Source: Gammaproteobacteria bacterium | Lineage (GTDB): Bacteria > Pseudomonadota > Gammaproteobacteria > JBCCGL01 | Direction of reading: 5' to 3' | Assembly: GCA_965277715.1 (NCBI GenBank) | Contig: OZ255836.1 | Location: 800,001-864,000, forward strand | Length of the DNA stretch: 64,000 bases | Part shown: positions 33,058-64,000 of the stretch, in pieces | Layout of the letters: every line of letters begins with the position of its first letter | Numbering within the stretch: position 1 is the first letter of the stretch | Translations under genes and position numbers: made by a program | Notes under the pieces: generated by a model | What the model saw: only the letters and a program-made list of their open reading frames with translations | Databases searched by the model: none | Told to the model about the DNA's origin: nothing

Positions 33058-36000
33058 TGTCTCGATGCTATCCCAGGTTTCCAGTGGGTAGCGATCCATT
33101 TCCCCATGCTCATTTATCGCGTTAAACCCGAGAAATTGCCATGCGTCCTCGCTTAGAGCCAGTAATTTTCCCGCATGTCCTTCACGCGTAAAGTATTGCC
33201 CATCCGGTAAATACTCAATGGTGTAAATACATTCACCGGACTCGGCGTTCCATATTTTGATGGTTTGGTCATCGGAAGCGGAGGCGATGCGTTTGCTGTT
33301 GTGGTCGAAGGCGACGCTGTTAATTGTGTTGTTATGCCCTTTTAAGGTGTGAATACATTGTGCGGATACGGCGTTCCATATTTTGATGGTTTGGTCATCG
33401 GAAGCGGAGGCGATGCGTTTGCTGTTGTGGTCGAAGGCGACGCTGTTAATTGTGTTGTTATGCCCTTTTAAGGTGAGAATACATTGTCCGGATACGGCGT
33501 TCCATATTTTGATGGTTTGGTCATCGGAAGCGGAGGCGATGCGTTTGCTGTTGTGGTCGAAGGCGACGCTTTGAACCCAATTATCATGCCCTTTTAAGGT
33601 GTGAATACATTGTGCGGATACGGCGTTCCATATTTTGATGGTTTGGTCATTGGAAGCGGAGGCGATGCGTTTGCTGTTGTGGTCGAAGGCGACGCTGAGA
33701 GCTAGGCCTTCATGCCCTTTTAAGGTGAGAATACATTGTCCGGATACGGCGTTCCATATTTTGATGGTTTGGTCAAAGGAAGCGGAGACGATGCGTTTGC
33801 TGTTGTGGTCGAAGGCGACGCTGTTAATTGTGTTGTTATGCCCTTTTAAGGTGAGAATACATTGTGCGGATACGGCGTTCCATATTTTGATGGTTTGGTC
33901 ATTGGAAGCGGAGGCGATGCGTTTGCTGTTGTGGTCGAAGGCGACACTTTGAACCCAATCATCATGCCCTTTTAAGGTGTGAATACATTGTCCGGATACG
34001 GCGTTCCATATTTTGATGGTTTTGTCATATGAAGCGGAGGCGATGCGTTTGCTGTTGTGGTCGAAGGCGACGCTGTTAATTGTGTTGTTATGCCCTTTCA
34101 AGGTGAGAATACATTGTCCGGATACGGCGTTCCATATTTTGATGGTTTTGTCATCGGAAGCGGAGGCGATGCGTTTGTTGTTGTGGTCGAAGGCGACGCT
34201 GAGAACAGTATCTGAATGCCCTTTTAAGGTGTGAATACATTGTCCGGACTCGGCGTTCCATATTTTGATGGTTTTGTCATATGAAGCGGAGGCGATGCGT
34301 TTGCTGTTGTGGTCGAAGGCGACGCTTTGAACCCAATGATCATGCCCTTTTAAGGTGAGAATACATTGTGCGGATACGGCGTTCCATATCTTGATGGTTT
34401 TGTCATATGAAGCGGAGGCGATGCGTTTGTTGTTGTGGTCGAAGGCGACGCTGAGAACAGTATCTGAATGCCCTTTTAAGGTGAGAATACATTGTCCGGA
34501 CTCGGCGTTCCATATTTTGATGGTTTTGTCATATGAAGCGGAGGCAATGCGTTTGCTGTTGTGGTCGAAGGCGACGCTGTTAATTGTATTGTTATGCCCT
34601 TTTAAGGTGTGAATACATTGTCCGGATACGGCGTTCCATATTTTGATGGTTTTGTCAAAGGAAGCGGAGGCGATGCGTTTGCTGTTGTGGTTGAAGGCGA
34701 CGCTGAGAACTAGGCCTTCATGCCCTTTTAAGGTGAGAATACATTGTGCGGATACGGCGTTCCATATTTTGATGGTTTGGTCAAAGGAAGCGGAGGCGAT
34801 GCGTTTGCTGTTGTGGTCGAAGGCAACGCTTTTAACCCAATCATCATGCCCTTTTAAGGTATGAATACATTGTCCGGATTGTGCATCCCAGAGTTTGAGG
34901 GTGTTGTCGTGTGAAGCGGAGGCGATCAGCAGGCCATCATGTGAAAAAGCGGCGGCGCTAACTGCATCGCGGTGTCCGACAAACGGGGTGGCAGGGCGAG
35001 CGGGCGGGCGGGCGATTTTTTTCGCCAGCGGATGCTGGCAACCGGCATTAAACGGTGGGTGCCCGCTTATCGCCGACGGCCATACCACGTCATTGAGCTG
35101 GCAGTGCAGCCACTGGCTACGGTGTTGCTGTGGCGTAGCCAGCCGCGCAGCAGAAAAATCGTTGTGGTAGAACACCGCCCCGCTCAAATCGGCCTGGCTG
35201 AAGTCGGCGGATTGCAGCGCGCTGTCGCGCCATAATACCCGTTGCAGATTGGCCTGTTGAAAGTGGACGTGGTTGAGCTGTACCTGGGTAAAGCGGCTGT
35301 CGCTAAGGTCGGCCCTGTCGAACGCCGCACCGCTGAGGTCCACATCGTTCAATACCAGGCCAGCCAATTGTGCACCGTGGAGCTGAAAACCTTGCAGGCC
35401 GGGCTGGGGTTGCTGGCGCGGCGCGGCGTATAAGCTGTAGTGAAATAGCGCTTCGCTGGCCTGACGAAGGTAGTGCTGCTTCCAGCCTGCCAATATGGCC
35501 AATAAATTGTCGGCGCCACTGTGCAGTTGCAGCAGTTCGCCGAGAAATTGCAGGGTTTCATTGGAGGGGGGGGCGAGACACCAACCCTCTTGCCGATTCT
35601 CGTCTATTGCCCGCAACAGATAACAGGCCAGAAAGTACTCCTGGATTGAGGTGTGGGCAAAGCGAAACTGATCGCTATTGGCACGCACCAACAGGGTGGA
35701 GTTGCGCAAATCGTTTTCCAGTAATTCCTGTATGCCGGTTTTGGCCCCAGCCCGGATTTTGGGGTGGGCGTATAGCCACTCCTCCAGCCAGGCTTCCAGG
35801 GTCTCGACCGGGCAGGCGCGCAGCCCTTCGCGCCAGAAGTGCGCCGCCAGGTCTTCCAGCAGGTATTGCTTGTGCCGGGGCAGTAACTGGTGCTTGCCGT
35901 CATCGCGGCGGAACAGGCGCTCGACCATAATGCGGTACAGCCGGGCGGCGTTGATGGTCTCGCCGCGTTGGTAGGCTAACTCCAGGCTGGGAATATCGTT

Positions 36001-38095: not shown

Positions 38096-38968
38096 ATGAA
38101 AGTTTCACTTGATCATTTATCTGAACAGAAACAGCGCGAGCTGAAATGGGCCACGGATATTGTCCGCGAAGAAGCCAACCCCGAAATGCTCATTTTGTTT
38201 GGCAGCTACGCTCGCGGTGACTGGGTGGAGGACTTAAACCCGGAAACGCTGCATTACCGTTATCAAAGCGATTTTGATTTGTTGGTGGTTACAGAAACCC
38301 GCAAAGAAGCCGGTAAAATTGAGCAAAACAACGCGCTTAACCAGCGTTTAATGAAAGCGATACACAGAACCCCAATCAGCCTGATTGCTGAGGACATCCA
38401 ATTTGTTAACCGGCGTTTAAGAAAGAGCCAGTATTTTTACATTGACATCAAACGTGAAGGTATAACCCTTTATGATTCAGGGCGGTTTGAATTAGCCGAA
38501 CCAAAGGAACTTAATGTAGAAGAAAGAAGGCGACTAGCGGAAGAAGATTTTGACTATTGGTTTGGCAAAGCATCAAGGCTTTTAAATTTCTATGATTTTG
38601 GTATTAGTGAAAAAGCTTATAATGAGGCAGCATTTCAGCTTCATCAAGTAACTGAAAGCTTATATGGAACAATATTGTTGGTTTTTACTCGCTATAAACC
38701 CAGCACCCATGATTTAGCAAAATTGAGCCAACGAGTCACCAGCATTAAACCACAGTTTCTTAGCGTATTTCCGCAGGGGACTGAAGAAGAAAAAAACCAC
38801 TTTGAGTTACTGCGTAAAGCTTATGTCGATGCACGTTACAAGCCGAGCTACAAAATCACTCGGCAAGAATTGGAATGGTTGGCAGGACGGGTGCAACAAC
38901 TAAAATCTTTAACGGAAATGCTTTGCAAGGAAAAAATTGAAAGTTTTAGGGAGTGCTCAAACAAATAA
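38096..38968 (+). CDS. Fused nucleotidyltransferase (MNT)-HEPN protein
   Basis: LFGSYARGD...SDFDLLVV NTase motif; HEPN FQLHQ..E, HDL, YVDARY. Confidence 0.85.
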   Translation: MKVSLDHLSEQKQRELKWATDIVREEANPEMLILFGSYARGDWVEDLNPETLHYRYQSDFDLLVVTETRKEAGKIEQNNALNQRLMKAIHRTPISLIAEDIQFVNRRLRKSQYFYIDIKREGITLYDSGRFELAEPKELNVEERRRLAEEDFDYWFGKASRLLNFYDFGISEKAYNEAAFQLHQVTESLYGTILLVFTRYKPSTHDLAKLSQRVTSIKPQFLSVFPQGTEEEKNHFELLRKAYVDARYKPSYKITRQELEWLAGRVQQLKSLTEMLCKEKIESFRECSNK

Positions 38969-39128
38969 ACATAGCAAATACCCAAACAATCAGTTTCTGG
39001 AAGATGTCACTGTGGCGCATTAGAATATGACGTTATTGCCACTGCAATAGTTGCAGGCTTAGCGCTAAATATCGAACGGTCAGTCGATGTTTTTAGATTA
39101 AAATTAAAACAGTTTTTTGGAATTAAAA

Positions 39129-41396
39129 ATGTCTGATAACTTATTGAATAACATTACAAAAAATTTGCAAGAAAGCACCGATAATGACACTTTTTGCACG
39201 CGCTTCTCTTTTCCTGCAACCGACTTTCCAGTCGAGATAAAACACCTTGGGGAAATAAACTTCCCCGTTTCGACCCGAATAGCCAAAGAGATAATTGATC
39301 AAGCTCAGCTAGCACCCTTCGGCTGGCGGGATCAAACCATAGTAGACACAAGAGTGCGCAATGCCTGGGAAATAAAAAAATCAAAAATCAAGCTACCTGG
39401 TACAAGCATGGAGCAGATTCCTGAAATGCTAGAACGCATAAAGAAAAACCTAAATATGGCCGCTGACGCCACCTTGGTGCCTGAGCTTCACAACTTGGTT
39501 ATCTACGAAAAAGGCCAGTTTTTTTCCAGCCACCAAGACACAGAGAAATGCAAAGATATGATCGCCACCATGGTGATTTTGCTACCATCAAACTTCAAGG
39601 GAGGCACTTTGACAATCGATCGACAAGGTGATGTGAAAAAATACACCGCACCCAGAACCACTAACCACCTTCAAGTCATCGCCTTTTACACGGATTGTGT
39701 TCACGAAGTAAAAAAAATCACCTCGGGCTACCGCATAGCCCTCACTTTCAACTTGCTGCTAAAGGGCGCTGGCACCCTCCAGCCTTTGCAAAACCCAGCG
39801 CTAACAGAGTCGATAAAAGCATACTTCTCGGAAGACGAGAGGCAAGCGCTAAACTGCGCGCAATCAAATCACCCAACCTGGTTAGTTTATCTACTGGATC
39901 ACCAATACTCCCAATATGGCCTAAGTTGGGGACACCTGAAAAGTGCGGATCGCACACACGCCTCACAACTGCTTGCCGCTGCGGAAGCACTCGACCTCGA
40001 AGCGCATTTATCTTTGGCGGATGTTCACGAGGTCTGGCAAACAGAATCGGACTATTCCAATAGTGGGTACTACGGTTACAGGGGGGGCGACGACGATGGA
40101 GAAGATGAAGATATATCGGGCGATGATGTGGAGTGCATCGAGTTTATCGAGGGTGATTGCGAACTCCGACGTTGGGTGAATTCAAACGGTAAGAAACGGG
40201 CTTGGAAGGGGCATTACGTGCCAGATGAAATGGTAGGCTGGACGAAGGCGATGGATAACTTCGAGCCTTTCGATTCCGCGTATGAAGGCTTTATGGGAAA
40301 TTATGGCGACACGATGGAAAAGTGGTATCACCGCGCCGCTATTACACTTTGGCGAAAAACCGACGCATTCCCCAGCCTATTTGCTATCGACGCGAATGGC
40401 ACTCAGAAAAAAGTGCAAAAAATGCTCGATACCAACTTTGAACAAGGTGTGGCGGCTCTAAAGACGCTTTTACCTCAATGGGAACGCAAGGTAGGCTCCG
40501 ATGGTGTACAAATATCTGAGACGCTAAAACTCTGTCTTTTGGTAAAAGATAAAGCGTTAGCGACCCAATTGCTCGAAGGCTATGGAATGGAGGCCGTATG
40601 CAGGAAGCACGGCGTCGGACTAAGAAACCTGGCCCGAAGTTATGGACAGAAATGGTTGGTGGAGCTCCTCGATATTTGGAGCAAATCAGATCGTGACTAC
40701 TTTGATCCGATTGCTGGTCTCGCCTTTCTGATAAACATTTTTCGCGATGATTCAGAGGTGGCGGCATGGCTTTGTGCTTATCAGTTTAAATGGTTCGAGG
40801 TCTCAGACAGTGTGGCTCAAGAACATGATAGCCAGGTGTCGATAGTGAAAACCCGCAATAAACGCGTCTCCCATGCCGTCGATTTTCTGAAATCCTTAGC
40901 CGCCCTTGGGGAAAACAGTATTATGGCGAAATCGACCCGGCACTTCCTCGGTTATCCCAGACTATATGATGCTGTCACCTTGGCAGACATGGTGCTCGGC
41001 TTACAAGACGAAAATTTATCGCCTAACATCCAGAAATTAACCGCAGAAGCGAGGAAGCGGCTCAAGGCGTCGACAGCTAAAACCAGGAAGGAAGGTGACT
41101 ACTCGATTTTGGAAATCGATACCTGTAAATGTAAAGATTGTGTTGTGCTTCACGGCTTCCTCAAAAGCAAAAAAGAAACGCAATATGTTTGGCCTCTGGC
41201 ACAAGGCAGGCGATACCATATACACCGAGTCATAGATGATATGGGCATCGGTGTTTCCCATCAAACCCAGCGGGAGGGCTGCCCGTATAAGCTCGTTCTG
41301 AAGAAGCTCGATAAGTATTTCAAAAATGAAGCGCGTGTAAAGACCATGCAGTCTGAAAAGCTTGCAAAAATTGAAGCAATTTATAGATTAAGATGA
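39129..41396 (+). CDS. 2OG-Fe(II) oxygenase with a long C-terminal extension
   Basis: HQD...HEV...RIALTFNL facial triad and 2OG Arg; acidic loop; C-terminal CKCKDC. Confidence 0.8.
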   Translation: MSDNLLNNITKNLQESTDNDTFCTRFSFPATDFPVEIKHLGEINFPVSTRIAKEIIDQAQLAPFGWRDQTIVDTRVRNAWEIKKSKIKLPGTSMEQIPEMLERIKKNLNMAADATLVPELHNLVIYEKGQFFSSHQDTEKCKDMIATMVILLPSNFKGGTLTIDRQGDVKKYTAPRTTNHLQVIAFYTDCVHEVKKITSGYRIALTFNLLLKGAGTLQPLQNPALTESIKAYFSEDERQALNCAQSNHPTWLVYLLDHQYSQYGLSWGHLKSADRTHASQLLAAAEALDLEAHLSLADVHEVWQTESDYSNSGYYGYRGGDDDGEDEDISGDDVECIEFIEGDCELRRWVNSNGKKRAWKGHYVPDEMVGWTKAMDNFEPFDSAYEGFMGNYGDTMEKWYHRAAITLWRKTDAFPSLFAIDANGTQKKVQKMLDTNFEQGVAALKTLLPQWERKVGSDGVQISETLKLCLLVKDKALATQLLEGYGMEAVCRKHGVGLRNLARSYGQKWLVELLDIWSKSDRDYFDPIAGLAFLINIFRDDSEVAAWLCAYQFKWFEVSDSVAQEHDSQVSIVKTRNKRVSHAVDFLKSLAALGENSIMAKSTRHFLGYPRLYDAVTLADMVLGLQDENLSPNIQKLTAEARKRLKASTAKTRKEGDYSILEIDTCKCKDCVVLHGFLKSKKETQYVWPLAQGRRYHIHRVIDDMGIGVSHQTQREGCPYKLVLKKLDKYFKNEARVKTMQSEKLAKIEAIYRLR

Positions 41397-52244: not shown

Positions 52245-54581
52245 CTAAAACATCGAAAGCTGAGCACTGGTGATTTTTGCAAAACTGGTGTCCAGGCAAT
52301 TCAACAAACTGTCGGCAGCCGGGGCAAGTTGCCGTTCAATATAATGATCATAATCGAACGCTGAGGTGATGTTGTCTGCCGGTTCGGGGCCATTGACGGT
52401 GATGAAATAGCGAATCCAGCGGTCTTTATGCCGTGATTTACGGGCGGCCTGAACGTGTGGCGGTACGTTTTTTGTGTAGGTATCGAGCGGTTTGCGCAGG
52501 CGTTTTCTATAGCTTAACTGTTGATCCAGCTCGCCTTTGTTAAGGCGTTCGACGGTTTCCAATATCAAATCGGTATACGCCTGATCATTGAATATGCGCT
52601 GGTAGAGCTCACGTTGAAAATTGCGCGCCAAAGGCGTCCAGTCTGAACGCACGCTCTCCATACCCTTAAATATCAATACCCTCTCGCCGTCTTTTTCTAT
52701 TATGCCTGCGTAACGCTTTTTGCTGCCCTTGGTATCACCACGGGTAGTGGGCATCAAAAACCGACTGAAATGGGTCTCGAATTCCAGCTCCAGGCAGGAT
52801 TCGATGGCATATTCCTCTACCAGATGAGTCTGCCACCATTGGTTGAGTGTGTGCAGCAGTTGCATACCAGTTTGTTGTGCCTGATCGTGGGAATACCTTG
52901 GCCCCAACAGTATGAATACCGAGTCGGTATCGCCATAAATAACCGAAAAGCCTGCGGCCTCGATGTGATCACGCGTGTTTTGAATAATCTCATGGCCACG
53001 ACGGGTGATGCTGGAGGCGAGTTTGTGGTGGTGAAACCGACAGCCGGAGGTACCCAAAACGCCGTAAAACGAATTCATAATGATTTTTATCGCCTGCGAT
53101 AACGGGGCGTCATTCTGTTGTTTGGCACTATCACGCGATGCCCACAAGGTTGTGATGAGCTCGGGAAGAATAGGGTTGTCACGGCTAAAGCTGGCACCGT
53201 GAAAACCGGGCACCTGGTTGTCATCGTCCAAAATCAAACCGAGTGGATCGATCAAAAAGCTGCGGATGATACTTGGGTATAGGCTTTTAAAGTCGAATAC
53301 CAGTACGTTTTCATAGAGTCCGGGTTTTGAATCCATTACAAAGCCACCGGGGCTGGCAATATCGCTCTCCACATCGTCGATATTTTTTGCGACAAAACCG
53401 CGACGGTGCAGCCTCGGCAGGTAAAGATTGTCGAAGGCCGCCACTGAACCGCCTATACGGCCCAGGGCCAGGCCCGTGAGCTGGCTGCGCTGTAGGGTAA
53501 AATTGATCAACCCGGTCTTGTCAAAAATATCCTCCACCAACTGGCAGTCCAGGATGTTATAGGCGAGCAATTGATCTGGGTCCTGGGCGTATAAGTGTTG
53601 TATCTCCGCCACCTTGTCGTGGTTTTCGTCGATTAATTTACCTCGGCCAAGCAGTTCCTGAGCAACAAACTCCAGCGAAAAGCGCTCGAATGTCCAAAAG
53701 GCGGCGCGCAGCATTTCGATACCATCGATCACCAGCCGACCAGGTATTGCGGCAATATACGTTTGGCTGGTGTGCCCTGGCAGTAAAATGGCCGCCCGTG
53801 CGTCACCGCGTGCAAAATCAAATGTTAATCGCAGCGCAGCGCAGCGCTTTTGAATATAGGCAAGATCAAAACCGATGACATTCCAGCCAATAATAATGTC
53901 GGGGTCGTGTTGCTGTAACCAGGCAAAAAATGCCTGCAGCATGGCGGCTTCGCTCTCCTGAATCGAGAGCAGGGTGTTATCGGTGTTTTTGGGTGGTGCG
54001 TGCCAGTCTGGGTGTCGTTGGATAAAGGCATAGGCCTGGCGCTGTTGCGCAACGTCATGCCAGCTACAGGCAATCGAGATAATGTTGCCATTGATGCCGT
54101 CTGTCTCTATATCCAGAGAAATAACGGATAGTGTGCTGGTTAATACACCGGGTTTCATGCGGGGGTTGATAAAGGTTGTGTGGCCGTTTTTTGCCACACC
54201 GGTGCCGGTGAACTCGACCGCGCAGGTAATAAATCGCTCCATCAGGTAGCGGTCGGGTGGCTTAATATCGGCTTCGTAGAGGGTAATGCCCTGTTGTTTG
54301 CATTGCTGGCGAAAGTTGAGCAGTGCGCGCTGTTGTTGGAAATATACCGCACAAACCGGTGCTTTCTCATCGAGTGTCAGAAGTTCGAGGGGGCTTACCT
54401 GAGCGGCGGCACGGGCCAGGTCGGCATCCTGCTGTTTGATAAAACACACAGCCTGTTGCTGATTGATAACTAATTTAGCGGGTCCATTGTGTGTGGCCAG
54501 CCAATACGTCAATTCTATACCGCGTGAGGTGTCATACCCATGACGTGTCAGGATAGTGCCGGAAATACTGTTGTCACCCAT
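52245..54581 (-). CDS. polB: DNA polymerase II (family B)
   Basis: SLDIET exonuclease, DFKSLYPS, KIIMNSFYG, YGDTDS, KKRYAG. Confidence 0.96.
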   Translation of the reverse strand: MGDNSISGTILTRHGYDTSRGIELTYWLATHNGPAKLVINQQQAVCFIKQQDADLARAAAQVSPLELLTLDEKAPVCAVYFQQQRALLNFRQQCKQQGITLYEADIKPPDRYLMERFITCAVEFTGTGVAKNGHTTFINPRMKPGVLTSTLSVISLDIETDGINGNIISIACSWHDVAQQRQAYAFIQRHPDWHAPPKNTDNTLLSIQESEAAMLQAFFAWLQQHDPDIIIGWNVIGFDLAYIQKRCAALRLTFDFARGDARAAILLPGHTSQTYIAAIPGRLVIDGIEMLRAAFWTFERFSLEFVAQELLGRGKLIDENHDKVAEIQHLYAQDPDQLLAYNILDCQLVEDIFDKTGLINFTLQRSQLTGLALGRIGGSVAAFDNLYLPRLHRRGFVAKNIDDVESDIASPGGFVMDSKPGLYENVLVFDFKSLYPSIIRSFLIDPLGLILDDDNQVPGFHGASFSRDNPILPELITTLWASRDSAKQQNDAPLSQAIKIIMNSFYGVLGTSGCRFHHHKLASSITRRGHEIIQNTRDHIEAAGFSVIYGDTDSVFILLGPRYSHDQAQQTGMQLLHTLNQWWQTHLVEEYAIESCLELEFETHFSRFLMPTTRGDTKGSKKRYAGIIEKDGERVLIFKGMESVRSDWTPLARNFQRELYQRIFNDQAYTDLILETVERLNKGELDQQLSYRKRLRKPLDTYTKNVPPHVQAARKSRHKDRWIRYFITVNGPEPADNITSAFDYDHYIERQLAPAADSLLNCLDTSFAKITSAQLSMF

Positions 54582-54662
54582 AAGCGGGCATTGTATCGCC
54601 AGTTGGCAGTACGGGCTGTGTTATTTGTGCCTATTGCGAGGCTTTAAAGATGAATTAAATGC

Positions 54663-54815
54663 TTATTCAGAGCTTACCTGAAATGAAGTGTAAACACTGA
54701 TGCTGCGCTTGTTGTCATTGATCTGTTCGACATAACCGTAAACGTAAACAGCCAGTAGCAACACCGTTACCAATAACATTGTTGGCGTATCTGACCATCG
54801 CTGTATATATATCAT
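54663..54815 (-). CDS. Putative 50-aa single-pass membrane protein
   Basis: GGGAGAG directly before ATG; hydrophobic MLLVTVLLLAVYVYGYV; below the ORF-track cutoff. Confidence 0.45.
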   Translation of the reverse strand: MIYIQRWSDTPTMLLVTVLLLAVYVYGYVEQINDNKRSISVYTSFQVSSE

Positions 54816-55108
54816 CTCTCCCGGGGTTTACCTGCGCTGACAGTTGTGTTATCTGCAATTTGGGTTTAAAAAACGGGCAATAGTTATTCCGTATTTGTGA
54901 CGAGTGCCCGAACCTGACAGGTGTTCAAGTACTATCGGTATATTCGGCTTAAAATGATGTGAAAAAATCACCTCGCTGGCTGTTTATTTTATCTGCGCAC
55001 TCCGTGTTTTGCGCTTGTGTGATAAAAAACCAACTGTTTTCAGTATTTGCGCTACTATCCAAACGGATTGTATTGAACGTAAATAAACGAATAATCTGAG
55101 AAAAGACA

Positions 55109-57529
55109 ATGACACTTTTAATCTGGATAGCAATTTTGTTCGGGGCCTTGTACGGCATTGCCAAAACCCGTGCCAGCTTTGTACTGTGCTGCGCCGTCAC
55201 CGCTGTCGCGCTGTTTATTTTGTGTGGCCTTGATTTTCTCGATGGGGCATACGCCTTCGTGGCCTGGAGCGTATTCCTGCTGATTGCCGTACCCCTGAAC
55301 AGCGTACAGATTCGGCAGCGTTTTATCAGTGCGCCCCTGTTGCAATACATCAAATCGGCATTGCCACCGATGTCAGAAACCGAGCGCACGGCCATCGAGG
55401 CGGGCACTGTCTGGTGGGAGGCCGAGTTGTTTCAGGGCAACCCCGATTGGCAAAAACTGCTGCAAATGCCCGCACCGCAGTTTAGCCCGGAGGAACAGGC
55501 GTTTATCGATGGGCCGGTCGAGACACTGTGCGCCATGCTCGATGACTGGCAAATCACCCACGAGTTCAAGGACTTGCCTGAGCCTGTTTGGCAGTTTATG
55601 AAGGATAATGGCTTTTTTGGGTTAATTATCGCCAAAGAATTTGGTGGGCACGGCTTCTCTGCGTTGGCGCACTCGCAAATTGTAATGAAAGTATCCAGCC
55701 GCAGTGTCTCGGCGGGGGTTACCGTAATGGTGCCCAACTCATTGGGGCCTGCCGAGCTGTTATACCACTACGGTACTGAGGAACAAAAGAACCACTACTT
55801 ACCCCGGCTCGCTGCCGGTAAAGAAATTCCCTGTTTTGCACTGACCGGGCCAAATGCAGGATCAGATGCGGGCGCCATCCCCGATTACGGCATTGTCTGC
55901 AAAGGCAGACACAAGGGCAAAACAGTACTGGGGTTAAACGTCAGTTGGGAAAAGCGCTATATCACATTAGGCCCGGTAGCGACATTGCTGGGGCTGGCTT
56001 TCAAAGCCTACGACCCAGACCACTTGCTCGGTGACAGCGAGGAGCTAGGCATTACCTGTGCGCTAATCCCGACAAAAACCAAAGGGGTGAAAATTGGCAA
56101 TCGACATTTTCCGCTTAACCAGGCTTTTATGAATGGCCCGAACAGCGGTGAAAATGTCTTTATCCCGATGGAATGGATCATCGGTGGGCAGGAAATGCTA
56201 GGGCAGGGGTGGCGAATGCTGATGGAATCACTCTCGACCGGGCGTGGTGTATCACTGCCATCCTCCGGCACCAGCTCTGGCAAATTTGCCAGCCGCGTCA
56301 CCGGTGCTTATGCCCGTGTGCGCAAACAGTTTAATCTGCCGATAGGAAAATTTGAGGGGGTCGAGGAAGCCTTGGCGCGCATTGCCGGGTTGACCTATAT
56401 GATGGATGCGGGGCGATTGCTCACCTGCGTCGCCCTCGACCAGGGTGAAAAGCCCTCAGTGGTATCGGCCATACTGAAATACCACAACACCGAACAAATG
56501 CGCCAGGTGATGAATGATGCGATGGATATTCACGGTGGCCGGGGAATTTGCATGGGGCCGAACAACTACCTTGCACGCGCCTATCAGGGAGTACCGGTCG
56601 GCATTACAGTGGAAGGGGCCAACATTCTCACGCGCAGCATGATTATTTTTGGCCAGGGTGCAATGCGCTGCCACCCCTATGTTGTGCGGGAGATTGAAGC
56701 GGCCTCAAATAAAGACAGCCACATTGGTTTGCCCGCATTTGACGAAGCCTTATTTCAACATCTCGGCTATACCGTGCGCAACGGTGCGCGCGCCCTGTTG
56801 TTTGGTTTAACCCGCAGCAACTTAGCCGATGCACCTGTAAACGGCGAGCACGCCAAATACTATAAACGCCTGGCCCGCATGAGCGCCGCTTATGCTTTTG
56901 TCGCTGATCTGGCCATGTTGTTTTTGGGCGGTGGGCTAAAGCGCAAAGAAAAACTCTCTGCCCGTTTTGCCGATGCGCTGACCTATATGTTTATGTGCTC
57001 GGCAGTGTTGAAGCGCTATGAAGACACAGGGCGGCCGACGGCTGACCGACCGCTGATGGAGTGGGGGGTTAAATACGCGCTCTACCAAATACAAAGTGCC
57101 CTCGACGAAATCCTGCGGAACTTCCCCAACCGTCTGGTTGGCCAGTGTTTGCGCGCTATTATTTTCCCTATGGGCCGACGCTTTCGCGCCCCCAACGATG
57201 CATTGGGGCAAAAAGTCGCAACATTATTACTGGCACCTTCTGACGCACGAGACCGATTGACCGATGGCATCTATCACAACAATAACCCCGATGATATTAC
57301 CGGCAAACTTGAACATGCCCTGCAATTGATTATTGAGGCAGATCCCATCGAAAAACGCTTGCGCGATCAAGGTGTAAACAAACCATTTAACTGTGATTAC
57401 CCGCGCTGGATTGCCGCGTTACTGGATGAAAAAAACATCACCCAACAAGAAGCCGATTGCCTGTTAAACAGCTACCAGGCCAGCCGTAATGCCATCATGG
57501 TGGATGACTTTGAGCCGGATAAACTGTGA
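55109..57529 (+). CDS. fadE: Acyl-CoA dehydrogenase FadE
   Basis: N-terminal TM, PNSLGPAELL, CFALTGPNAGSDA, TVEGANILTR. Confidence 0.95.
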   Translation: MTLLIWIAILFGALYGIAKTRASFVLCCAVTAVALFILCGLDFLDGAYAFVAWSVFLLIAVPLNSVQIRQRFISAPLLQYIKSALPPMSETERTAIEAGTVWWEAELFQGNPDWQKLLQMPAPQFSPEEQAFIDGPVETLCAMLDDWQITHEFKDLPEPVWQFMKDNGFFGLIIAKEFGGHGFSALAHSQIVMKVSSRSVSAGVTVMVPNSLGPAELLYHYGTEEQKNHYLPRLAAGKEIPCFALTGPNAGSDAGAIPDYGIVCKGRHKGKTVLGLNVSWEKRYITLGPVATLLGLAFKAYDPDHLLGDSEELGITCALIPTKTKGVKIGNRHFPLNQAFMNGPNSGENVFIPMEWIIGGQEMLGQGWRMLMESLSTGRGVSLPSSGTSSGKFASRVTGAYARVRKQFNLPIGKFEGVEEALARIAGLTYMMDAGRLLTCVALDQGEKPSVVSAILKYHNTEQMRQVMNDAMDIHGGRGICMGPNNYLARAYQGVPVGITVEGANILTRSMIIFGQGAMRCHPYVVREIEAASNKDSHIGLPAFDEALFQHLGYTVRNGARALLFGLTRSNLADAPVNGEHAKYYKRLARMSAAYAFVADLAMLFLGGGLKRKEKLSARFADALTYMFMCSAVLKRYEDTGRPTADRPLMEWGVKYALYQIQSALDEILRNFPNRLVGQCLRAIIFPMGRRFRAPNDALGQKVATLLLAPSDARDRLTDGIYHNNNPDDITGKLEHALQLIIEADPIEKRLRDQGVNKPFNCDYPRWIAALLDEKNITQQEADCLLNSYQASRNAIMVDDFEPDKL

Positions 57530-57904
57530 CCTTAAAACACTGCTTGGCACAGAACCTCGTATCAAGGCCTCTCAGAGGCTAAAACACGGATTTCTGGTTG
57601 ACTGATCGAACGGTATTATTGATGAATTCATAGCTGCCTCCAGGGGATGAGGCTTTTAATATCTGAACCCAACTGTCAAACGGATAGTACGTCTATATAT
57701 TGGTGCTTACGTTGAAGTTGACATACATGCTTTATTTTCCTATAAACGTGGGTAAGCTTTTCAAATCTTAGGTTTCCTGGTTTGCCAGGTAATATCAACT
57801 TATCAGGGCGAACTTGTTTGATTTTCCGGGTAGTATCCAATATTAGGGAAGATTGGTTTGGTGCTAATTGTTATGCATAATTTAAACAACAAAGGAGTTA
57901 ATTT

Positions 57905-58696
57905 ATGAAGAAAATAATAAATAAACTATTGCTAACTGCAGTGGTGTTAATGTCAGGATGTACATCTTTACCAAAGGAAACTGTCGAATTATCAGAAGTG
58001 ACAGGGTACCAAATTACAGCGTTACATGAATCACATATAGGGTTTATTGAGCTGTATTATGGGAAGTTACGCGAAGATATCAATGATTTCATTGATGAGA
58101 AATGGACGCCATTATTTCTGTCCAAAGCTATTAATAATTTAGCGTTTCGCGCTGATCTTGATGCTGCTTATTTGACAAGTAACATTAAAGCTAGTGACAT
58201 ATCTATTACATGGAGAGGCAAAGAAATAAAAGACCCGCAAAAAAGCATCGTTTTACAGGGGGTAGAAACAGCAGTAACAGACGAAAAAGCAAAGTTAGGT
58301 GATACGTTGCTGGAATGGTCAGAGGAGGCTCAATACCAAATAAACAAAAAACGGCATGAACTACTTAAACCAGTAAACGAACAGGAAAAAATGGTAATTA
58401 GTGAAATAAACGGGGCTTTTTTCGACTTGCAAAGGTCTCAGGCAGCAATCAAAGGTTACCTTGCATCGGCTGTTGATTTAAGAGAAAAAAGCAATGAGAT
58501 TCTACAAAAGCTTGGGGCTTTGGAAAGGGTTGGAAATGTTATGAATGCCATCACTGATGCAAATGAAAAGGTAAGCACTATTTTGGGTGCCAAAGATGGT
58601 GCCCAAAAAGCGCTGAAAGATTTTTTAATTCAAATAGAGGCATCGAGTGACAATATAATGAACGCGGCCAATAAAAAAATTGAAGGGGAGAAATAA
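57905..58696 (+). CDS. Hypothetical helical lipoprotein
   Basis: AAGGAG SD, lipobox MSGC, AT-rich, coiled-coil-like. Confidence 0.75.
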   Translation: MKKIINKLLLTAVVLMSGCTSLPKETVELSEVTGYQITALHESHIGFIELYYGKLREDINDFIDEKWTPLFLSKAINNLAFRADLDAAYLTSNIKASDISITWRGKEIKDPQKSIVLQGVETAVTDEKAKLGDTLLEWSEEAQYQINKKRHELLKPVNEQEKMVISEINGAFFDLQRSQAAIKGYLASAVDLREKSNEILQKLGALERVGNVMNAITDANEKVSTILGAKDGAQKALKDFLIQIEASSDNIMNAANKKIEGEK

Positions 58697-58697
58697 A

Positions 58698-58952
58698 ATG
58701 GGAAAATATGATCTAAGCAATGAAGCAGAAGAGACAGATTTGGAGCTTGGTAGTGCTATTGAAAAACTGGGGGCACTTACTGATTCAAAAATTGCTGAGT
58801 TATTGCCTAACAGGGTCGATCAGGATGAGCTTAGCAGGCTGATTAAAGCTGTAAATGAGGCGACTAGTGAAAACGGTAAAAAAACTATAATGGTAGAGCG
58901 CCTAGGAACAATCTCATCAGTTGTGAAAGATGTGGTGTTGAAATTAGTGTAG
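58698..58952 (+). CDS. Hypothetical 84-aa protein coupled to the lipoprotein gene
   Basis: GGGGAG SD; ATG 1 bp after the upstream stop. Confidence 0.7.
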   Translation: MGKYDLSNEAEETDLELGSAIEKLGALTDSKIAELLPNRVDQDELSRLIKAVNEATSENGKKTIMVERLGTISSVVKDVVLKLV

Positions 58953-59374
58953 AGCATAACAAGACCAATTGAGCTGGGCTTACCTTTCAGTAGCTGCGCT
59001 GCGCTTGTAGTTGAAAAAAAGCAGTTGCCTGTGCTTTTCTGATAACGATAGGTCGCCCAAATCTGTAGTGCATGTTCCTAATACACAAATGAATATCAAA
59101 GGTAAGGCTCTTACTCAAGCTGGTTACGGCGTTTTTCAAGCTAGTTATCGCCTAGAGTATAATTTATGCCGCCTTGTTCTTTCCTCGCACAGGGTTAAGG
59201 TGAACGCCTTTCACTTGATCAACCTATTCCTCTGAAAAACGCCTTATAAAAAGTGCATTACTCAGGCTGATGTGTTCGATGCTTAGCGCGCTTTTTACAC
59301 GCAGTTATCCAAAATAACACGTCAGGTATGGCGCTCTATCAGAGGCAACTAAAACCTCTCTTACTCGCATATTT

Positions 59375-61321
59375 GTGATTACTTACCGGACACCAATACT
59401 TATGCATTGTTCTTGGCTAACAACAAAACATTCTCGATACCTTCCAAATAATGTTTTGGATGAGTCTTTACATTATCGGGGTGGAAGCACGACATTGATT
59501 ACGCTCTATAATGAGCCTGGAGAGCAACTGGCACTGAGTTTACTCGCACTTACTAAATCGATTCAATGGTCGCAAGCAAAAAACGCAGCAACCCAGAATA
59601 ACGCTAAACAAATCTTGCCACACACAATATGTATTATCGCAGACGGTTACCACAACCTGAGTGACTCCGCAAAAGCAGTTTTTAAACACTTAGGGAAAGA
59701 CCTGGAACGGGATGAGCTATCCACTAGCGATATGCTAATTCACAATACTTCCATCAATACGGCAGAACTTATTCAATCATTGGAAGGTATCAATTTCCAT
59801 CAAACCAGCTTGCATAAGAATACCGCAGTCAAACTATTACTGTGTATTAAACGCGAAAATTCTGGCAAGTTAGACACTCATTGGTGGTATTACAGATTAC
59901 TGTGCCCAACAATAGAGCCACAATTTTGTTTTCATCTAGATACCGCAACAGAGCCATGCCTCGAATCTATTTACCACATGGAACAGTGTATGCTTGACAA
60001 TAGCGAGGTGGGAGCGGTCGCTAGCAGCGTATGTATAAAACCACTCGAAAATGTTATTGAGATACTGAATATATGGCAATACCGAAGCTTGCTAAACTCC
60101 GTGTATCTTGAGTGGCCGACAGATGAGCTTCTGTCGTATTTAAATGTTATTCCCGGCCAGTATGGTGTAATGCGCTGGGAGGCAATTGCTGATGATAAAG
60201 AGCGGGATGATGTGCAACGAGAAGGTTTACAGCCTCTTGATATATACTTTAAAGGGCTTGGAAAATTGCCGCCATTTGAATCTTCCCTTTACTTGGCTGA
60301 GGATCGTGTACTTTGTAAAGAGGTGATACTTCGGCCAAAGCACTCATGGAAGCTCAAACACGTTGACCACGCCATTGCTTATAGTGACGCTTGCGAGAAC
60401 TTACCTGAGTTGTTGCAACAACGTCGACGCTGGAATGTTGGCACACTAGCCTCTCGTGCAAGCTACCTTTTACGTTTACCCCAATGCCTAACATCAGATG
60501 AGCACTCCCGCCTATCTAAACTTAAGATGCTTTTTTTTGGTGCTATACAAGTTATTCGTCTTCTAATGGATTGGTTTTCACTACTGGTACCGCTAGCCTA
60601 TTACGATATTGCCAGCAGTGCCCTTGCTACAACAAAATCGGGTTCGCTAACATATTATTACAGCTTTGGCATTTCTGTTGTCACGGCGCTCATGCTGATT
60701 TGGCAGTTTTATATATCGCTAAGGGGTAAAACAGACGAGGTTGCAGAATACTCGCTATGGCTATCTATTGCCATTCAAGCGATATTTGCTTTGAGTATGT
60801 ATCCTCATTTGCTTACTAGCGACAAGGGCGGCATCGCCTTATTATTAATGTCATTCTCGCTACTTTGCGTTCCATTTATCTCTGCATACAAAAAGTTCGT
60901 GCCAACGTCTGCGATTTTTCGTGACAGTATTTTTTATTTTGTCTGTTCTCCCATTATCTCTTACCAGCTATGGATATTTGCTATTTGTAATACTCACCAG
61001 ACTAGTTGGGGCACCAAAGGATTACAGGCGCCAAACCGCTATGGGAACAAACACCGCCAAGCCGAATTTACAAGATTTCGCTGGTATATTCTTAGCTTAT
61101 GGATCATCTCAAGCAGTGGTATGACGGTGGCCCTATATAAGTCACTCACTGCAAACGAATATAACGGCGTTATTTTAGCCCTGGGCGTACAAGCGGCGAT
61201 AATACTGCTCGCCACTGTCGCCACGATGATACGAGCGACACTCTCGACAATGAGACAAGGGGTAAAAACAGCTCACAAGTACTTCATCCGAGCCCTGCGG
61301 ACAATTGGAATTACGGGGTAG
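59375..61321 (+). CDS. Chitin synthase (GT2, fungal class I-III-like)
   Basis: ITLYNE, IIADG, KRENSGKLDTHWW, VIPGQY, YLAEDRVLC, QRRRW, several TM helices, SWGTKG. Confidence 0.85.
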   Translation: MITYRTPILMHCSWLTTKHSRYLPNNVLDESLHYRGGSTTLITLYNEPGEQLALSLLALTKSIQWSQAKNAATQNNAKQILPHTICIIADGYHNLSDSAKAVFKHLGKDLERDELSTSDMLIHNTSINTAELIQSLEGINFHQTSLHKNTAVKLLLCIKRENSGKLDTHWWYYRLLCPTIEPQFCFHLDTATEPCLESIYHMEQCMLDNSEVGAVASSVCIKPLENVIEILNIWQYRSLLNSVYLEWPTDELLSYLNVIPGQYGVMRWEAIADDKERDDVQREGLQPLDIYFKGLGKLPPFESSLYLAEDRVLCKEVILRPKHSWKLKHVDHAIAYSDACENLPELLQQRRRWNVGTLASRASYLLRLPQCLTSDEHSRLSKLKMLFFGAIQVIRLLMDWFSLLVPLAYYDIASSALATTKSGSLTYYYSFGISVVTALMLIWQFYISLRGKTDEVAEYSLWLSIAIQAIFALSMYPHLLTSDKGGIALLLMSFSLLCVPFISAYKKFVPTSAIFRDSIFYFVCSPIISYQLWIFAICNTHQTSWGTKGLQAPNRYGNKHRQAEFTRFRWYILSLWIISSSGMTVALYKSLTANEYNGVILALGVQAAIILLATVATMIRATLSTMRQGVKTAHKYFIRALRTIGITG

Positions 61322-61534
61322 AAATTAATCTGTCGAACTCAAAACCTGATCTGACAGTTAATCACCGAAAACCCGGTAACTGTCTGAACTTCTACGCTTC
61401 AGGCCCCTTGATACGGATCTTGATCAATATATTCCCACATTTCATTCTGATGCAGCCACATCGGGTCAGTTACCCTGACAACTTAATCCCGCCTGCAAGT
61501 TTGAGGTGTATTGAGTCTCACCATCAAAATAGAG

Positions 61535-62371
61535 TCAACCGGGCTTTCTATCATCAACAATATCCATACCCGCCATCGCACTGACCCCTAATGAAATAGA
61601 CGCAAACGGGCCGCCGTGGTGGGTGTTTGCCAGGTCGTTCAAGTCCTGGGGCGGGGTTTCAGCGAGGATTTTATCGGCAAACTGTTCGGCATTGTCGTTG
61701 GGGCGAAATCCCAGAAAATGCACTTTGGCATTGTCGACCGGCGCCCTGTCGTTGTTTGATACGCCGTATATCACAGCGAAGCCGGTTGCCGGGGTTGAGA
61801 TGGCTCGCTCGACCAGTTGAATCAAATCCGGGTAGGAGAGCCAGGTGCCCAGGGCGCGGGCGCTGGTTACCTGTGCACACGAGAGGATGCGCAGGCACAC
61901 CGCTTCAACCTGGCGTTTGTCCCAGTAGAGCCTGGCGAGGTCTTCTGCGAAACATTTGGAAAGACCATAGAAGGTATCCGGTTTATGCTGGGCGTCAGTG
62001 CCAATAAAATCCATTTTTGAATGCATACCTACCGCGTGGATGGAGCTGGCGTAAACCACCCGGCGAACGCCTTGCCTGTAAGCCGCTTCCCAGATGTTGT
62101 AGGCACCAATGATGTTAGGGCCAAGGATGTTTTCAAAGGGTGCCTCGTCACCAATTGCACCAAAGTGCACAACCATATCGGCGCCTTCAAGTAAGGCGTG
62201 TATCGCATCGTAATTTTGCAAATCAGCCTGGACATACGACTCACCCGAGTAAAGTGTCTCCAGACCCTCGACCAGATCAGAGGATACCAAGGCATCCGCC
62301 AGCTTGGATAAAGGCTCGCGCAGGTAGGAGCCAAGGCGACCAGCCGCGCCGGTTAGTACGATTTTCTTCAT
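61535..62371 (-). CDS. NAD-dependent epimerase/dehydrogenase (uronate dehydrogenase-like)
   Basis: TGAAGRLG, YASSIHAVG, PDTFYGLSK. Confidence 0.8.
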   Translation of the reverse strand: MKKIVLTGAAGRLGSYLREPLSKLADALVSSDLVEGLETLYSGESYVQADLQNYDAIHALLEGADMVVHFGAIGDEAPFENILGPNIIGAYNIWEAAYRQGVRRVVYASSIHAVGMHSKMDFIGTDAQHKPDTFYGLSKCFAEDLARLYWDKRQVEAVCLRILSCAQVTSARALGTWLSYPDLIQLVERAISTPATGFAVIYGVSNNDRAPVDNAKVHFLGFRPNDNAEQFADKILAETPPQDLNDLANTHHGGPFASISLGVSAMAGMDIVDDRKPG

Positions 62372-63177
62372 CGGGTATTTTCCGTCTGTTTGGGGCTACT
62401 GTGCCCAGTACATTGTCGATTAATCTGGGTGAGTAGCTGGTCGGCATTTTTGGCGAGTAGTGAAATGTCTGAACCACAGGCGACAAAGGTAAAGCCCGCA
62501 TTTAGCAGCGTTGCTGCAAACGTTGGGTCGGCCATTAAGGTGCCAACCGGTATGCCTTTGGCGATGAGTTTCTTTGCGACAGGTAAAATCAAATCCCAGA
62601 CTTTTTCACTCATCGGGTTACCGAGCTGGCCTATGTCGGCGGCTATATCTGCCGGGCCAAAGAAAACACCGCTAACACCCTCGACACTGGCAATGTCTTC
62701 GGCACGCTCGATAGCCTGAGCCGTTTCGAGTTGTAGCAATACTGTTGTTTCATCTTCAACGCGCTCAAAGTAGTCGACGACCCGACCAAAGGCATTTGCG
62801 CGGGTCGCACCGCTAACACCGCGTATACCTCGTGGTGGGTAGCGTGTGGCGGCAACCGCTTTTTGCGCCTCTTCCACTGATTGAATCATGGGGAACAGTA
62901 AGCCCTGAGCACCAATATCCAGTAGGCGTTTGACTAATACCGGATCATTCCAATAGGGGCGCACAATGGCGGTGCTCGCGCTGGCGGCAAAAACCTGAAG
63001 TTGGCTCAAAATGGAGGGCAGGCTGTTGGGCGAGTGTTCCATATCCAGCAGTACCCAGTCATAACCACTGGAGGAGACCACCTCAGCGGCAACGTTACTG
63101 CTCAAGCTTAGCCACAGGCCAATCTGTTTTTCCCCGGCGTGTATCGCGTGGGTAAAGGGGTTATCGATGAGGTTCAT
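62368..63177 (-). CDS. HpcH/HpaI-family class II aldolase
   Basis: DWVLLDMEHSPN, RYPPRGIRG, FFGPAD. Confidence 0.9.
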   Translation of the reverse strand: MNLIDNPFTHAIHAGEKQIGLWLSLSSNVAAEVVSSSGYDWVLLDMEHSPNSLPSILSQLQVFAASASTAIVRPYWNDPVLVKRLLDIGAQGLLFPMIQSVEEAQKAVAATRYPPRGIRGVSGATRANAFGRVVDYFERVEDETTVLLQLETAQAIERAEDIASVEGVSGVFFGPADIAADIGQLGNPMSEKVWDLILPVAKKLIAKGIPVGTLMADPTFAATLLNAGFTFVACGSDISLLAKNADQLLTQINRQCTGHSSPKQTENTR

Positions 63178-64000
63178 ATGACTGCCTTTTCAATAAAGGG
63201 CCGGTTTTCGGCGATGCGTTGGTAGTTAAACGGGGAGAGGTCCAGCGCACGGTATTCACCGTAGGTAATCAATTCGGCGGTGCCGCGCCCCATGGCCGGT
63301 GATTGCTGAAAGCCATGCCCGGAAAAACCGTTGACGAAGATAAAATTCTCCACTTCGGTGTGCGGGCCGAGAATGGCATTTTGGTCGAGGGTATTGAAAG
63401 CGTAGTGCCCCGCCCAGGAGTTGATCAGTTTGATCGCCTCAAACTGAGGAATTCTATTGGCGATAGCCGGCCAGACTTTGTTTTCCCAGAGACTGTGATC
63501 CTGAATGAAATCATCGTAGTCGACCGCTGGATCGTCATCCGGTGGGCAGCCTGCCAGGTAGTAGCTGCCTTCGGTGCGCATGTGTACGCCACTGGGGTCG
63601 ATGGTCAGTGGCAGGTCGCGGTCGAGCGGGTTTTCGGCGGAGAAGATGAAGGTATAGCGCTTACGCGGTTCCACCGGGATGTCGATGCCCGCCATGCGCG
63701 AGGTGAGTACTGCCCGTGGCCCGGAGGCGTTGACCACTGTGCCACAGGCGATCACTTCACCCGATTTGAGAGTGACGCTTTCCACACGCGTACCCGCTGC
63801 GTTGCGGGTCATCGCGACCACTTCGTTGGTGATGTATTCCGTGCCTTTCTCCCGCGCTGAACGCCGCCACCAGTCAAACAGTGTATTGCCATCGAAATAG
63901 CCTTCATCGATTAAGTTATGGCTGCCCGCAACGATGTCTTCGAGGTTGTAGAAGGGGTAATCACGCGCAATCTCTTCAGCCGAGAGGATTCTGGTGCCCG
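63174..64000 (-). CDS. FAD-dependent oxidoreductase (DadA/sarcosine oxidase-like), 5'-truncated by window edge
   Basis: NASG, WAGHY, GFSGHGFQQSPAMG; frame is open to the window end. Confidence 0.85.
   Translation of the reverse strand, partial: GTRILSAEEIARDYPFYNLEDIVAGSHNLIDEGYFDGNTLFDWWRRSAREKGTEYITNEVVAMTRNAAGTRVESVTLKSGEVIACGTVVNASGPRAVLTSRMAGIDIPVEPRKRYTFIFSAENPLDRDLPLTIDPSGVHMRTEGSYYLAGCPPDDDPAVDYDDFIQDHSLWENKVWPAIANRIPQFEAIKLINSWAGHYAFNTLDQNAILGPHTEVENFIFVNGFSGHGFQQSPAMGRGTAELITYGEYRALDLSPFNYQRIAENRPFIEKAVI

Follow-up and report, generated by a model that had tools for sequence, protein, structure and literature searches.

A 64,000-nucleotide stretch of gammaproteobacterial DNA (contig OZ255836.1, positions 800,001 to 864,000; this whole stretch is called the window) carries near its right end a gene that, on the evidence of its sequence and predicted structure, is a division-1 (class I-III-like) chitin synthase. 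The gene occupies window positions 59375..61321 on the forward strand. It is probably an intact representative of the family's bacterial branch, horizontally acquired by a sponge-associated gammaproteobacterium, most likely from a marine bacterium, and it lies in a ~4-kb islet of low guanine-plus-cytosine (GC) content. The data directly support its family and fold, the integrity of its motifs, its position among bacterial enzymes, its real presence in the genome and its retention in natural populations. Bacterial chitin synthases have been known from genomes since 2016; the window copy adds an animal-symbiont case that is kept across sponge metagenomes from three studies.

Family, motifs and fold of the enzyme

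The locus has a single long open reading frame (ORF). Its features are given below, with residues numbered from the GTG start at 59375 and with Saccharomyces cerevisiae Chs1 (ScChs1) as the reference for the motifs.

59375..61321, forward strand: chitin synthase ORF, identified by its frame and by Pfam and phmmer matches
59504..59989, forward strand: Pfam Chitin_synth_1 domain (PF01644, 71.9 bits), residues 44-205, holding TLYNE, DG, KxxNxGK and D189
60299..60307, forward strand: E309-D310-R311 of LAEDRVL, invariant in 32 of 32 aligned sequences and aligned to LAEDRIL of ScChs1
60401..61303, forward strand: C-terminal helical membrane domain (model helices 343-643, from DSSP helices and the fold match), a predicted chain-translocating channel
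60419..60433, forward strand: QRRRW motif, residues 349-353, with Q349, R350, R352 and W353 invariant, aligned to QRRRW of ScChs1
61004..61021, forward strand: SWGTKG motif, residues 544-549, with W545, G546, T547, K548 and G549 invariant, aligned to SWGTKG of ScChs1

The ORF listing gives 648 amino acids (aa) from the GTG. The annotated form on record starts at ATG 59402 and has 639 aa (on a 4,294,796-bp contig), and on a truncated metagenome contig the gene caller chose TTG 59495. About 40 residues precede the first strand of the protein. A scan for promoters and terminators returned counts no higher than in shuffled sequences.

The PF01644 match covers profile positions 1-162 of 163, with a cut-off of 25 bits, and Chitin_synth_2 stays below threshold (20.5 bits vs 27); these two profile hidden Markov models were among the checks proposed with the original prediction. 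Chitin_synth_1N (PF08407), a division-1 feature typical of the eukaryotic members, is not listed at E 0.01 in the Pfam scan. The remaining division-1 features are present, namely PF01644 above its gathering score, catalytic motifs in sequential order, and a GT-A domain followed by a C-terminal helical channel. NCBIfam lists a single model, an XrtP-associated glycosyltransferase, at 20.3 bits and far under its cut-off of 520; none of its NodC, hyaluronan synthase, PgaC or BcsA models reaches E 0.01. A phmmer search of all Protein Data Bank (PDB) chains returned chitin synthases exclusively, six distinct sequences, with E-values of 1.7e-33 for ScChs1, 2e-33 for Candida albicans Chs2 (CaChs2) and 3.4e-26 for Phytophthora sojae Chs1 (PsChs1). 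The alignment to ScChs1 spans query residues 41-557; together with the Pfam score it puts the motif set well out of reach of chance.

The motifs follow one another in the order originally described: TLYNE (43-47), DG (90-91), KRENSGK (159-165), IPG (259-261), LAEDRVL (307-313), QRRRW (349-353), helices within 385-626, and SWGTKG (544-549). The gene has no introns, as had been stated. The catalytic set D90, D189, E309-D310-R311, Q349-R-R-R-W353 and S544-W-G-T-K-G549 is sequential and intact. When the enzyme was aligned with 31 relatives (32 sequences), 36 columns were invariant, including EDR, Q-R-x-R-W and WGTKG; in the N-terminal half these are T43, N46, E47, D90, G91, K159, N162, G164, K165, H169 and D189. 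The EDR motif is presumably the site of the catalytic base, going by GT2 synthases generally.

An AlphaFold2 model built from the 32 aligned sequences has a mean pLDDT (predicted local distance difference test) of 85.5 and a pTM (predicted template modelling score) of 0.87, and the C-terminal membrane domain mostly exceeds a pLDDT of 85. The hydrophobic segments fall at residues 385-408, 429-449, 484-506, 519-538 and 595-626. In Foldseek, chitin synthases (ScChs1, CaChs2 and PsChs1; 18 chains among the matches listed) reach template modelling (TM) scores of 0.74-0.79, hyaluronan synthases 0.33-0.41 and cellulose synthases 0.30-0.37 (BcsA 0.30-0.34).

The solved fungal and oomycete enzymes, ScChs1 (7xs6/8k3x), CaChs2 (7stl) and PsChs1 (7wjm), share with the window enzyme the GT-A domain and the membrane channel. 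The motifs TxYNE, DG, KxxNxxK, ED(R), QRRRW and SWGTKG align residue by residue with ScChs1, whereas overall identity to the fungal and oomycete enzymes is 17-20% in structural alignment and 24-27% by sequence. The window enzyme lacks their N-terminal region of 230-450 residues together with PF08407, and has WQYRS in place of their QNFEY.

NodC, class I hyaluronan synthases, PgaC and BcsA belong to the same superfamily and are likewise built from a GT-A domain in the cytosol, a QxxRW motif and a channel that the enzyme forms itself, but they differ from the window enzyme in family models and, for hyaluronan synthases and BcsA, in fold. No nodAB, pgaABD or bcsB-type neighbours stand beside the gene at the Pfam level. 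A tblastn search of 72,556 plasmids gave two weak partial matches (35% and 27% of the query), with no annotated feature beneath either. NodC was therefore rejected for want of a NodC-type model, an annotated plasmid match or nodAB-like neighbours, and class I hyaluronan synthase, PgaC and BcsA for low TM-scores, no family match and no partner genes. Because the PDB matches and the best Foldseek matches are chitin synthases and the plasmid matches are weak, the enzyme does not group with NodC, HasA or PgaC. Pfam, NCBIfam, phmmer, the plasmid search and Foldseek agree in this respect, and the original assignment to class I-III-like enzymes stands.

Bacterial relatives, the islet and natural populations

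Among 5.8 billion cluster representatives, a word-indexed search returned only 15 relatives, the best 32% identical and the next fungal at ~25%. An exhaustive HMMER search of 1.84 billion representatives gave 1056 matches at E<=0.001, 222 of them at <=1e-30; the top relatives form a large set of 600-690-aa proteins with 26-36% identity, and the closest full-length relative is at most 36% identical. When one genome each of 185,579 prokaryote species was scanned with the alignment, 40 of 73 pattern matches were confirmed as chitin synthase loci. A scan of species genomes with the single protein gave 25 pattern matches and none confirmed, so that it was the alignment-based scan that succeeded. 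All 40 loci are bacterial and belong to Pseudomonadota, Bacteroidota, Cyanobacteriota and Thermodesulfobacteriota; they include Cellvibrio mixtus J3-8 and the interrupted gene of Tolypothrix campylonemoides. The family is thus broader than the published dozen genomes. Among viruses, 28 pattern matches in IMG/VR yielded no confirmed carrier.

A maximum-likelihood tree (quick IQ-TREE, LG+C20 PMSF [posterior mean site frequency] model, support by the Shimodaira-Hasegawa-like approximate likelihood ratio test, SH-aLRT, only; unrooted) was computed from 68 rows. These were the window enzyme, the 32 loci ORFs that reach 590 aa, 20 cluster representatives, seven named eukaryotes and eight further unlabelled rows (seven long proteins, 1006-2326 aa in length, and P0014 with 672 aa). 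The eight loci ORFs under 590 aa were excluded, and the enterobacterial chitin synthases (Dickeya, Pectobacterium group) are absent. The tree splits, with SH-aLRT 100 on either side, into a 15-row clade that holds all named eukaryotes and a 53-row clade, bacterial wherever a name is given, that takes in every bacterial row. The window enzyme lies within a 28-row subclade (SH-aLRT 100) together with Alteromonadaceae, C. mixtus J3-8, Massilia and Flavobacteriales. Its sister is the pair P0151 and P0156 (SH-aLRT 87), of which P0156 comes from Teredinibacter turnerae; named "glycosyltransferase family 2 protein", it shares 31% identity with the window enzyme over 612 columns. In a reduced analysis of 29 rows under LG+G4, a constraint that joined the window enzyme to the eukaryotes cost 29.4 log-likelihood units, and the approximately unbiased (AU) test gave a p-value of 0.032.

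In this tree the gene is a divergent member of an all-bacterial chitin synthase clade and not a direct eukaryotic import. It groups with published bacterial members apart from the eukaryotes, and it has their length and short N-terminus (639-648 aa, no PF08407). The description of the gene as "eukaryote-type" goes too far, since it nests in the bacterial clade beside T. turnerae and C. mixtus and the eukaryotic grouping is rejected, though not strongly. It follows that the immediate donor was most likely another bacterium. The tree, being unrooted, has no bearing on the direction of an ancient transfer between eukaryotes and bacteria.

The gene lies in an AT-rich islet, as the original prediction had stated, and the islet contains the following further features.

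57550..61500, unstranded: low-GC islet of ~4 kb, GC 0.33-0.46, defined by composition only, borders approximate
57552..57584, forward strand: 33-nt element right after fadE, single-copy in the window, with several-fold raised word depth in three metagenome runs
57905..58696, forward strand: lipoprotein of 263 aa with a signal peptide ending in LMSGC, no Pfam family
58698..58952, forward strand: 84-aa ORF, its ATG 1 nt past the lipoprotein stop and preceded by a GGGGAG run, on record likewise

The flanks have a GC of 0.52-0.57. The islet is bounded by fadE (stop at 57529) and by a short-chain dehydrogenase/reductase (SDR) gene at 61535..62371 on the reverse strand. Horizontal acquisition, an inference of the original prediction, is consistent with these data; it is read from the low-GC islet together with the patchy spread of the 40 loci over four phyla among the 185,579 species genomes. 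At the islet borders no tRNA, integrase or flanking repeats were found, only short repeats at chance level, and the closest tRNA gene (tRNA-Pro) is 8.5 kb away. In an empty-site comparison, 80 metagenome loci with fadE relatives (identity at most 66%) had no common downstream synteny, a DUF3305 gene recurring in two, so that the borders cannot be fixed by comparison. The 33-nt element contains a GCCTC/GAGGC hairpin and is probably a dispersed short genome repeat resembling repetitive extragenic palindromic (REP) sequences.

The lipoprotein gene is co-oriented with the chitin synthase gene, and the 84-aa ORF is tightly coupled to it. Relatives of the lipoprotein are up to 68% identical (Neptunomonas antarctica 62%, Shewanella algae 57%, Desulfoluna spongiiphila 43%), far closer than any full-length relative of the chitin synthase, and the two genes are therefore treated as a separate cassette. 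In the Atlas the lipoprotein falls into generic "lipoprotein" clusters only, with low recognition. It was considered as a partner of the chitin synthase and rejected, there being no homologue within 10 kb of the 40 loci. The same holds for every other neighbouring gene of the window. The SDR gene has core GC and is convergent; its best NCBIfam match, an Azf-type glucose-6-phosphate dehydrogenase, is far below the model cut-off, and the gene is not to be taken for the "sugar epimerase" described in published operons.

The 5-kb stretch around the gene occurs, at no less than half of its sampled words, in eight runs from five studies, three of them labelled sponge metagenome. Contigs were compared from four runs (X4, X5, X6 and X8) belonging to four studies apart from the likely source. 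X4 record 1 covers 54500-59683 with 0 differences, linking fadE and the lipoprotein gene to the first part of the chitin synthase gene. The right junction is bridged by X5 record 16 (60781-63500, 17 differences) and by X6 record 23 (60221-63500, 22 differences), which extend from the gene interior through the SDR and aldolase genes; given their differences, the right junction exists in other strains. With contigs of separate studies across the right junction and one more run across the left, the junction check proposed at the outset speaks against a chimera. Within the islet, X5 record 12 has 15 differences and one gap in 2865 nt, and the flanks have 18 in 3082 and 17 in 2720 (~0.5-0.6%). This similarity of divergence implies that the islet predates the split of these strains.

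No frame-breaking change or indel was seen within the gene in the four runs. The sole indel is one extra A after 59242 (X5, X6 and X8), which is intergenic and falls in an A-run ~130-160 nt upstream of the start (GTG 59375 or ATG 59402). Among the variant sites listed, nine are in the ORF, six synonymous and three non-synonymous (A99T, Q204K and I534T), and 45 more lie in the 9-kb stretch; the ratio gives a weak hint of purifying selection. The database protein P0148, 98% identical, is a piece of the same enzyme on a 2892-bp contig, its internal differences being A99T and Q204K.

The FadE encoded next to the islet is 76-79% identical to proteins of metagenome-assembled genomes (MAGs) and, among the matches listed, 62-69% identical to six proteins named Granulosicoccaceae or Granulosicoccus. 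This similarity, taken with the sponge metagenome runs, places the host as a sponge-associated gammaproteobacterium near Granulosicoccaceae.

Proposed function and competing explanations

The 2016 survey by Goncalves et al. (PMC5122149) reports division-1 chitin synthases in "a dozen" bacteria: seven Enterobacteriaceae, two Cellvibrionaceae, one Pseudomonadaceae and one Rhizobiaceae, plus a broken Tolypothrix gene. According to the same text, these proteins have a short N-terminus and no PF08407, the gene lies in a low-GC island in some hosts, it is co-located with sugar epimerase and DUF1800/DUF1501 genes, and the T. turnerae and C. mixtus copies are inside secondary-metabolite clusters; the product is left between a chitin exopolysaccharide and chito-oligosaccharides (PMC5122149). 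The original mention of such enzymes in Dickeya and Pectobacterium is borne out there.

The T. turnerae and C. mixtus enzymes are of the same clade as the window enzyme, with ~640-690 aa, a short N-terminus, PF01644 without PF08407 and the same invariant motifs, at 31-33% identity; the hosts of all three are marine or host-associated gammaproteobacteria. Their genes are described as lying in nonribosomal peptide synthetase (NRPS) or secondary-metabolite clusters, however, whereas the window gene is alone in its islet apart from an unrelated lipoprotein cassette. Dickeya, Pectobacterium, Brenneria and Agrobacterium vitis likewise have a horizontally acquired division-1 enzyme, sometimes in a low-GC region, but their genes are reported to lie with DUF1800, DUF1501 and a sugar epimerase, some being fused to an aminotransferase domain, and the window has no DUF1800/DUF1501 pair.

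The neighbourhoods of 15 homologue loci were scanned with Pfam (115 of 160 ORFs, most distal ORFs being dropped). NRPS modules flank the chitin synthase in five: two Alteromonadaceae (L001 and L007), Cellvibrio (L003), a Cellvibrionaceae (L009) and a Steroidobacteraceae (L023). A lone condensation or thioesterase domain occurs in two more (L011 and L016), the DUF1800 and DUF1501 pair in two (L024 and L031) and an epimerase/dehydratase in two (L004 and L030). Other contexts are LuxR/LuxI with a lanthipeptide-dehydratase-like gene (L002), an IS200 transposase (L008), and a GT1 glycosyltransferase with a methyltransferase (L010). The NRPS-flanked loci suggest a recurring class of clusters for natural products that join a peptide to N-acetylglucosamine (GlcNAc). 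None of these partners (NRPS, DUF1800/DUF1501, epimerase, LuxR/LuxI, IS200, PilZ, GT1/methyltransferase) is found in the window. At the Pfam level the 64-kb window also has no deacetylase or exporter beside the gene, in agreement with the earlier remark that such genes were not adjacent. Partners of this kind, an operon with DUF1800, DUF1501 and epimerase or a secondary-metabolite cluster, are typical of the clade and do not strictly define it.

The enzyme is very probably functional, a judgement drawn from the intact catalytic motifs, the conservative nature of its sequence departures and population data free of gene breakage; its product is deduced. By analogy with its structural homologues it is most likely an inner-membrane maker and extruder of beta-1,4-linked GlcNAc chains. 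The processive GT2 synthases and the mechanism of the solved chitin synthases provide the basis for the roles of base, acceptor site and channel. The enzyme would be placed in the inner membrane, where its cytosolic GT-A domain (aa ~38-340) would take UDP-GlcNAc and attach GlcNAc in beta-1,4 linkage via ED(R) and QRRRW. The ED(R) aspartate would act as the base, and QRRRW would grip the acceptor end. The growing chain would reach the periplasm through a channel made of the enzyme's own C-terminal helices (aa ~343-643), at whose mouth SWGTKG would lie. Given no nearby outer-membrane exporter or deacetylase, the product may stay periplasmic, take a generic route out, or consist of short oligomers. 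Catalytic activity, the nature of the product (chitin or short chito-oligosaccharides) and any role at the cell surface or toward the host, including the matrix or host interaction suggested in the original prediction, are accordingly put forward as expectations.

Several points weigh against this account. The window enzyme departs from its relatives at nine of 73 columns conserved at >=85% (S168T, Q187H, G191A, F239L, E250D, G254S, T337S, D542Q and N580S), and five of the nine (S168T, Q187H, G191A, E250D and N580S) fall at columns invariant in the other 31 sequences. All nine are conservative, and three other aligned members deviate as much or more (10-11 columns). Its end branch of 1.54 is among the two longest in the tree. 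The tree has no bootstraps, no outgroup, no named oomycete, viral or diatom rows and only seven named eukaryotes, and the AU rejection is modest and comes from the reduced set. The left junction is bridged solely by X4, whose sequence is identical and may be from the same strain. No report of enzymatic activity for any bacterial chitin synthase was found in the literature, and the product is for that reason inferred from eukaryotic homologues at 19-27% identity. Finally, exit of a polymer from the periplasm is unexplained with no deacetylase, outer-membrane exporter, epimerase or DUF1800/DUF1501 pair nearby.

The last point would fit a tentative alternative, in which the enzyme yields short soluble chito-oligosaccharides that act on the sponge as a signal or immune modulator, like Nod or Myc factors, instead of polymeric chitin. 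Export and crystallisation machinery is absent nearby, sponge metagenomes of three studies contain the host bacterium, and the relative L016 has as neighbours a YdjC-family protein and three sulfotransferases, for which oligomers are the expected substrates. The option was raised for bacterial chitin synthases in the 2016 paper (PMC5122149), and a review presents chitin oligosaccharides as cues in marine symbioses (PMC12491435). The fold and channel, however, are like those of processive polymer-forming synthases, no acyltransferase, deacetylase or sulfotransferase is at the window locus, and no sequence feature sets chain length. Another reading, quite unlikely, makes it a natural-product enzyme that would decorate a lipid or peptide scaffold with GlcNAc or an oligomer of it, as the relatives within NRPS clusters may do, the window copy being an orphan off its cluster. 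The seven scanned loci with NRPS modules or lone condensation/thioesterase domains speak for it, as do the reported cluster locations in T. turnerae and C. mixtus (PMC5122149), the closest relatives that carry a name. But the whole window is free of NRPS, polyketide synthase (PKS) and tailoring genes, the islet offers just the lipoprotein cassette, and there is no chemical tie of the enzyme to a scaffold.

It is less probable still that the gene is a functionless relic of an old transfer, drifting in the absence of selection. Its 648 codons are open in the window and no indel breaks it in the four runs, all catalytic motifs are intact, the model folds confidently, and synonymous variants outnumber non-synonymous ones six to three among those listed. 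The long branch, the changes at five otherwise invariant columns, the absence of partner genes and the absence of any RNA run among the 11 runs matching the stretch are what such a relic would lead one to expect. An assembly chimera, or eukaryotic contamination (sponge or fungal DNA, for example) fused into a bacterial contig, is extremely improbable. The deviant GC could suggest it, as could the break of the X5, X6 and X8 contigs at 57552-57584; the break, however, falls on the 33-nt high-depth repeat, ordinary behaviour of a de Bruijn graph. Contigs from separate studies cross the gene into both bacterial flanks at the same divergence as the flanks, the gene has no introns, and its closest relatives are bacterial.

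A further proposal, on balance unlikely, is that a dominant gammaproteobacterial associate of the sponge produces chitin or chito-oligosaccharides of its own within a chitin-containing animal, the host-like glycan serving as a cloak against phagocytosis or as a recognition signal. Were this true, bacteria would contribute part of the "sponge chitin" signal. Since the window copy has no accessory genes at all, it is a minimal single-gene test object for what the bacterial enzymes make. The NRPS genes beside about a third to a half of the loci point to a possible class of GlcNAc-oligomer natural products.

Other genes of the window and of homologue loci

The placement of the gene on a bacterial chromosome is confirmed by the rest of the window, which contains dnaX, recR, thrS, pheS, pheT, polB, dapD, fadE, sarcosine-oxidase-like genes, the signal recognition particle (SRP) RNA and tRNA-Pro. 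A possible host-adhesion factor is encoded at 8105-13600 on the forward strand, a surface-type protein of 1831 aa in which bacterial cadherin-like, fibronectin type III and invasin D3 domains are combined. The reverse-strand gene at 33028-37896 encodes a 1622-aa protein whose C-terminal ~650 residues are eukaryote-like WD40 repeats (14 stretches, 547 bits). Eukaryote-like repeat proteins of the WD40 kind are enriched in sponge symbionts. A second low-GC patch (GC 0.43) lies at 38096-41396, forward strand, and may be another acquired islet; it encodes a nucleotidyltransferase-HEPN protein at 38096-38968 and, at 39117-41396, a protein of 759 aa that contains a 2-oxoglutarate (2OG)-Fe(II) oxygenase domain.

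Two homologue loci have further features of their own. At L016:6492-18139 (Cellvibrionaceae bacterium 1162T.S.0a.05) the neighbours of the chitin synthase homologue are a thioesterase, the YdjC-family protein, 3-4 sulfotransferase-domain proteins, a cupin and a penicillin-amidase-family acylase; as a set they resemble a route to chito-oligosaccharides that are modified and possibly sulfated. At L018:8626-9624, in a MAG assigned to Neomegalonema, the gene directly upstream of the homologue encodes a protein in which two stretches match the PilZ domain, which hints at control by cyclic di-GMP as in cellulose synthase.

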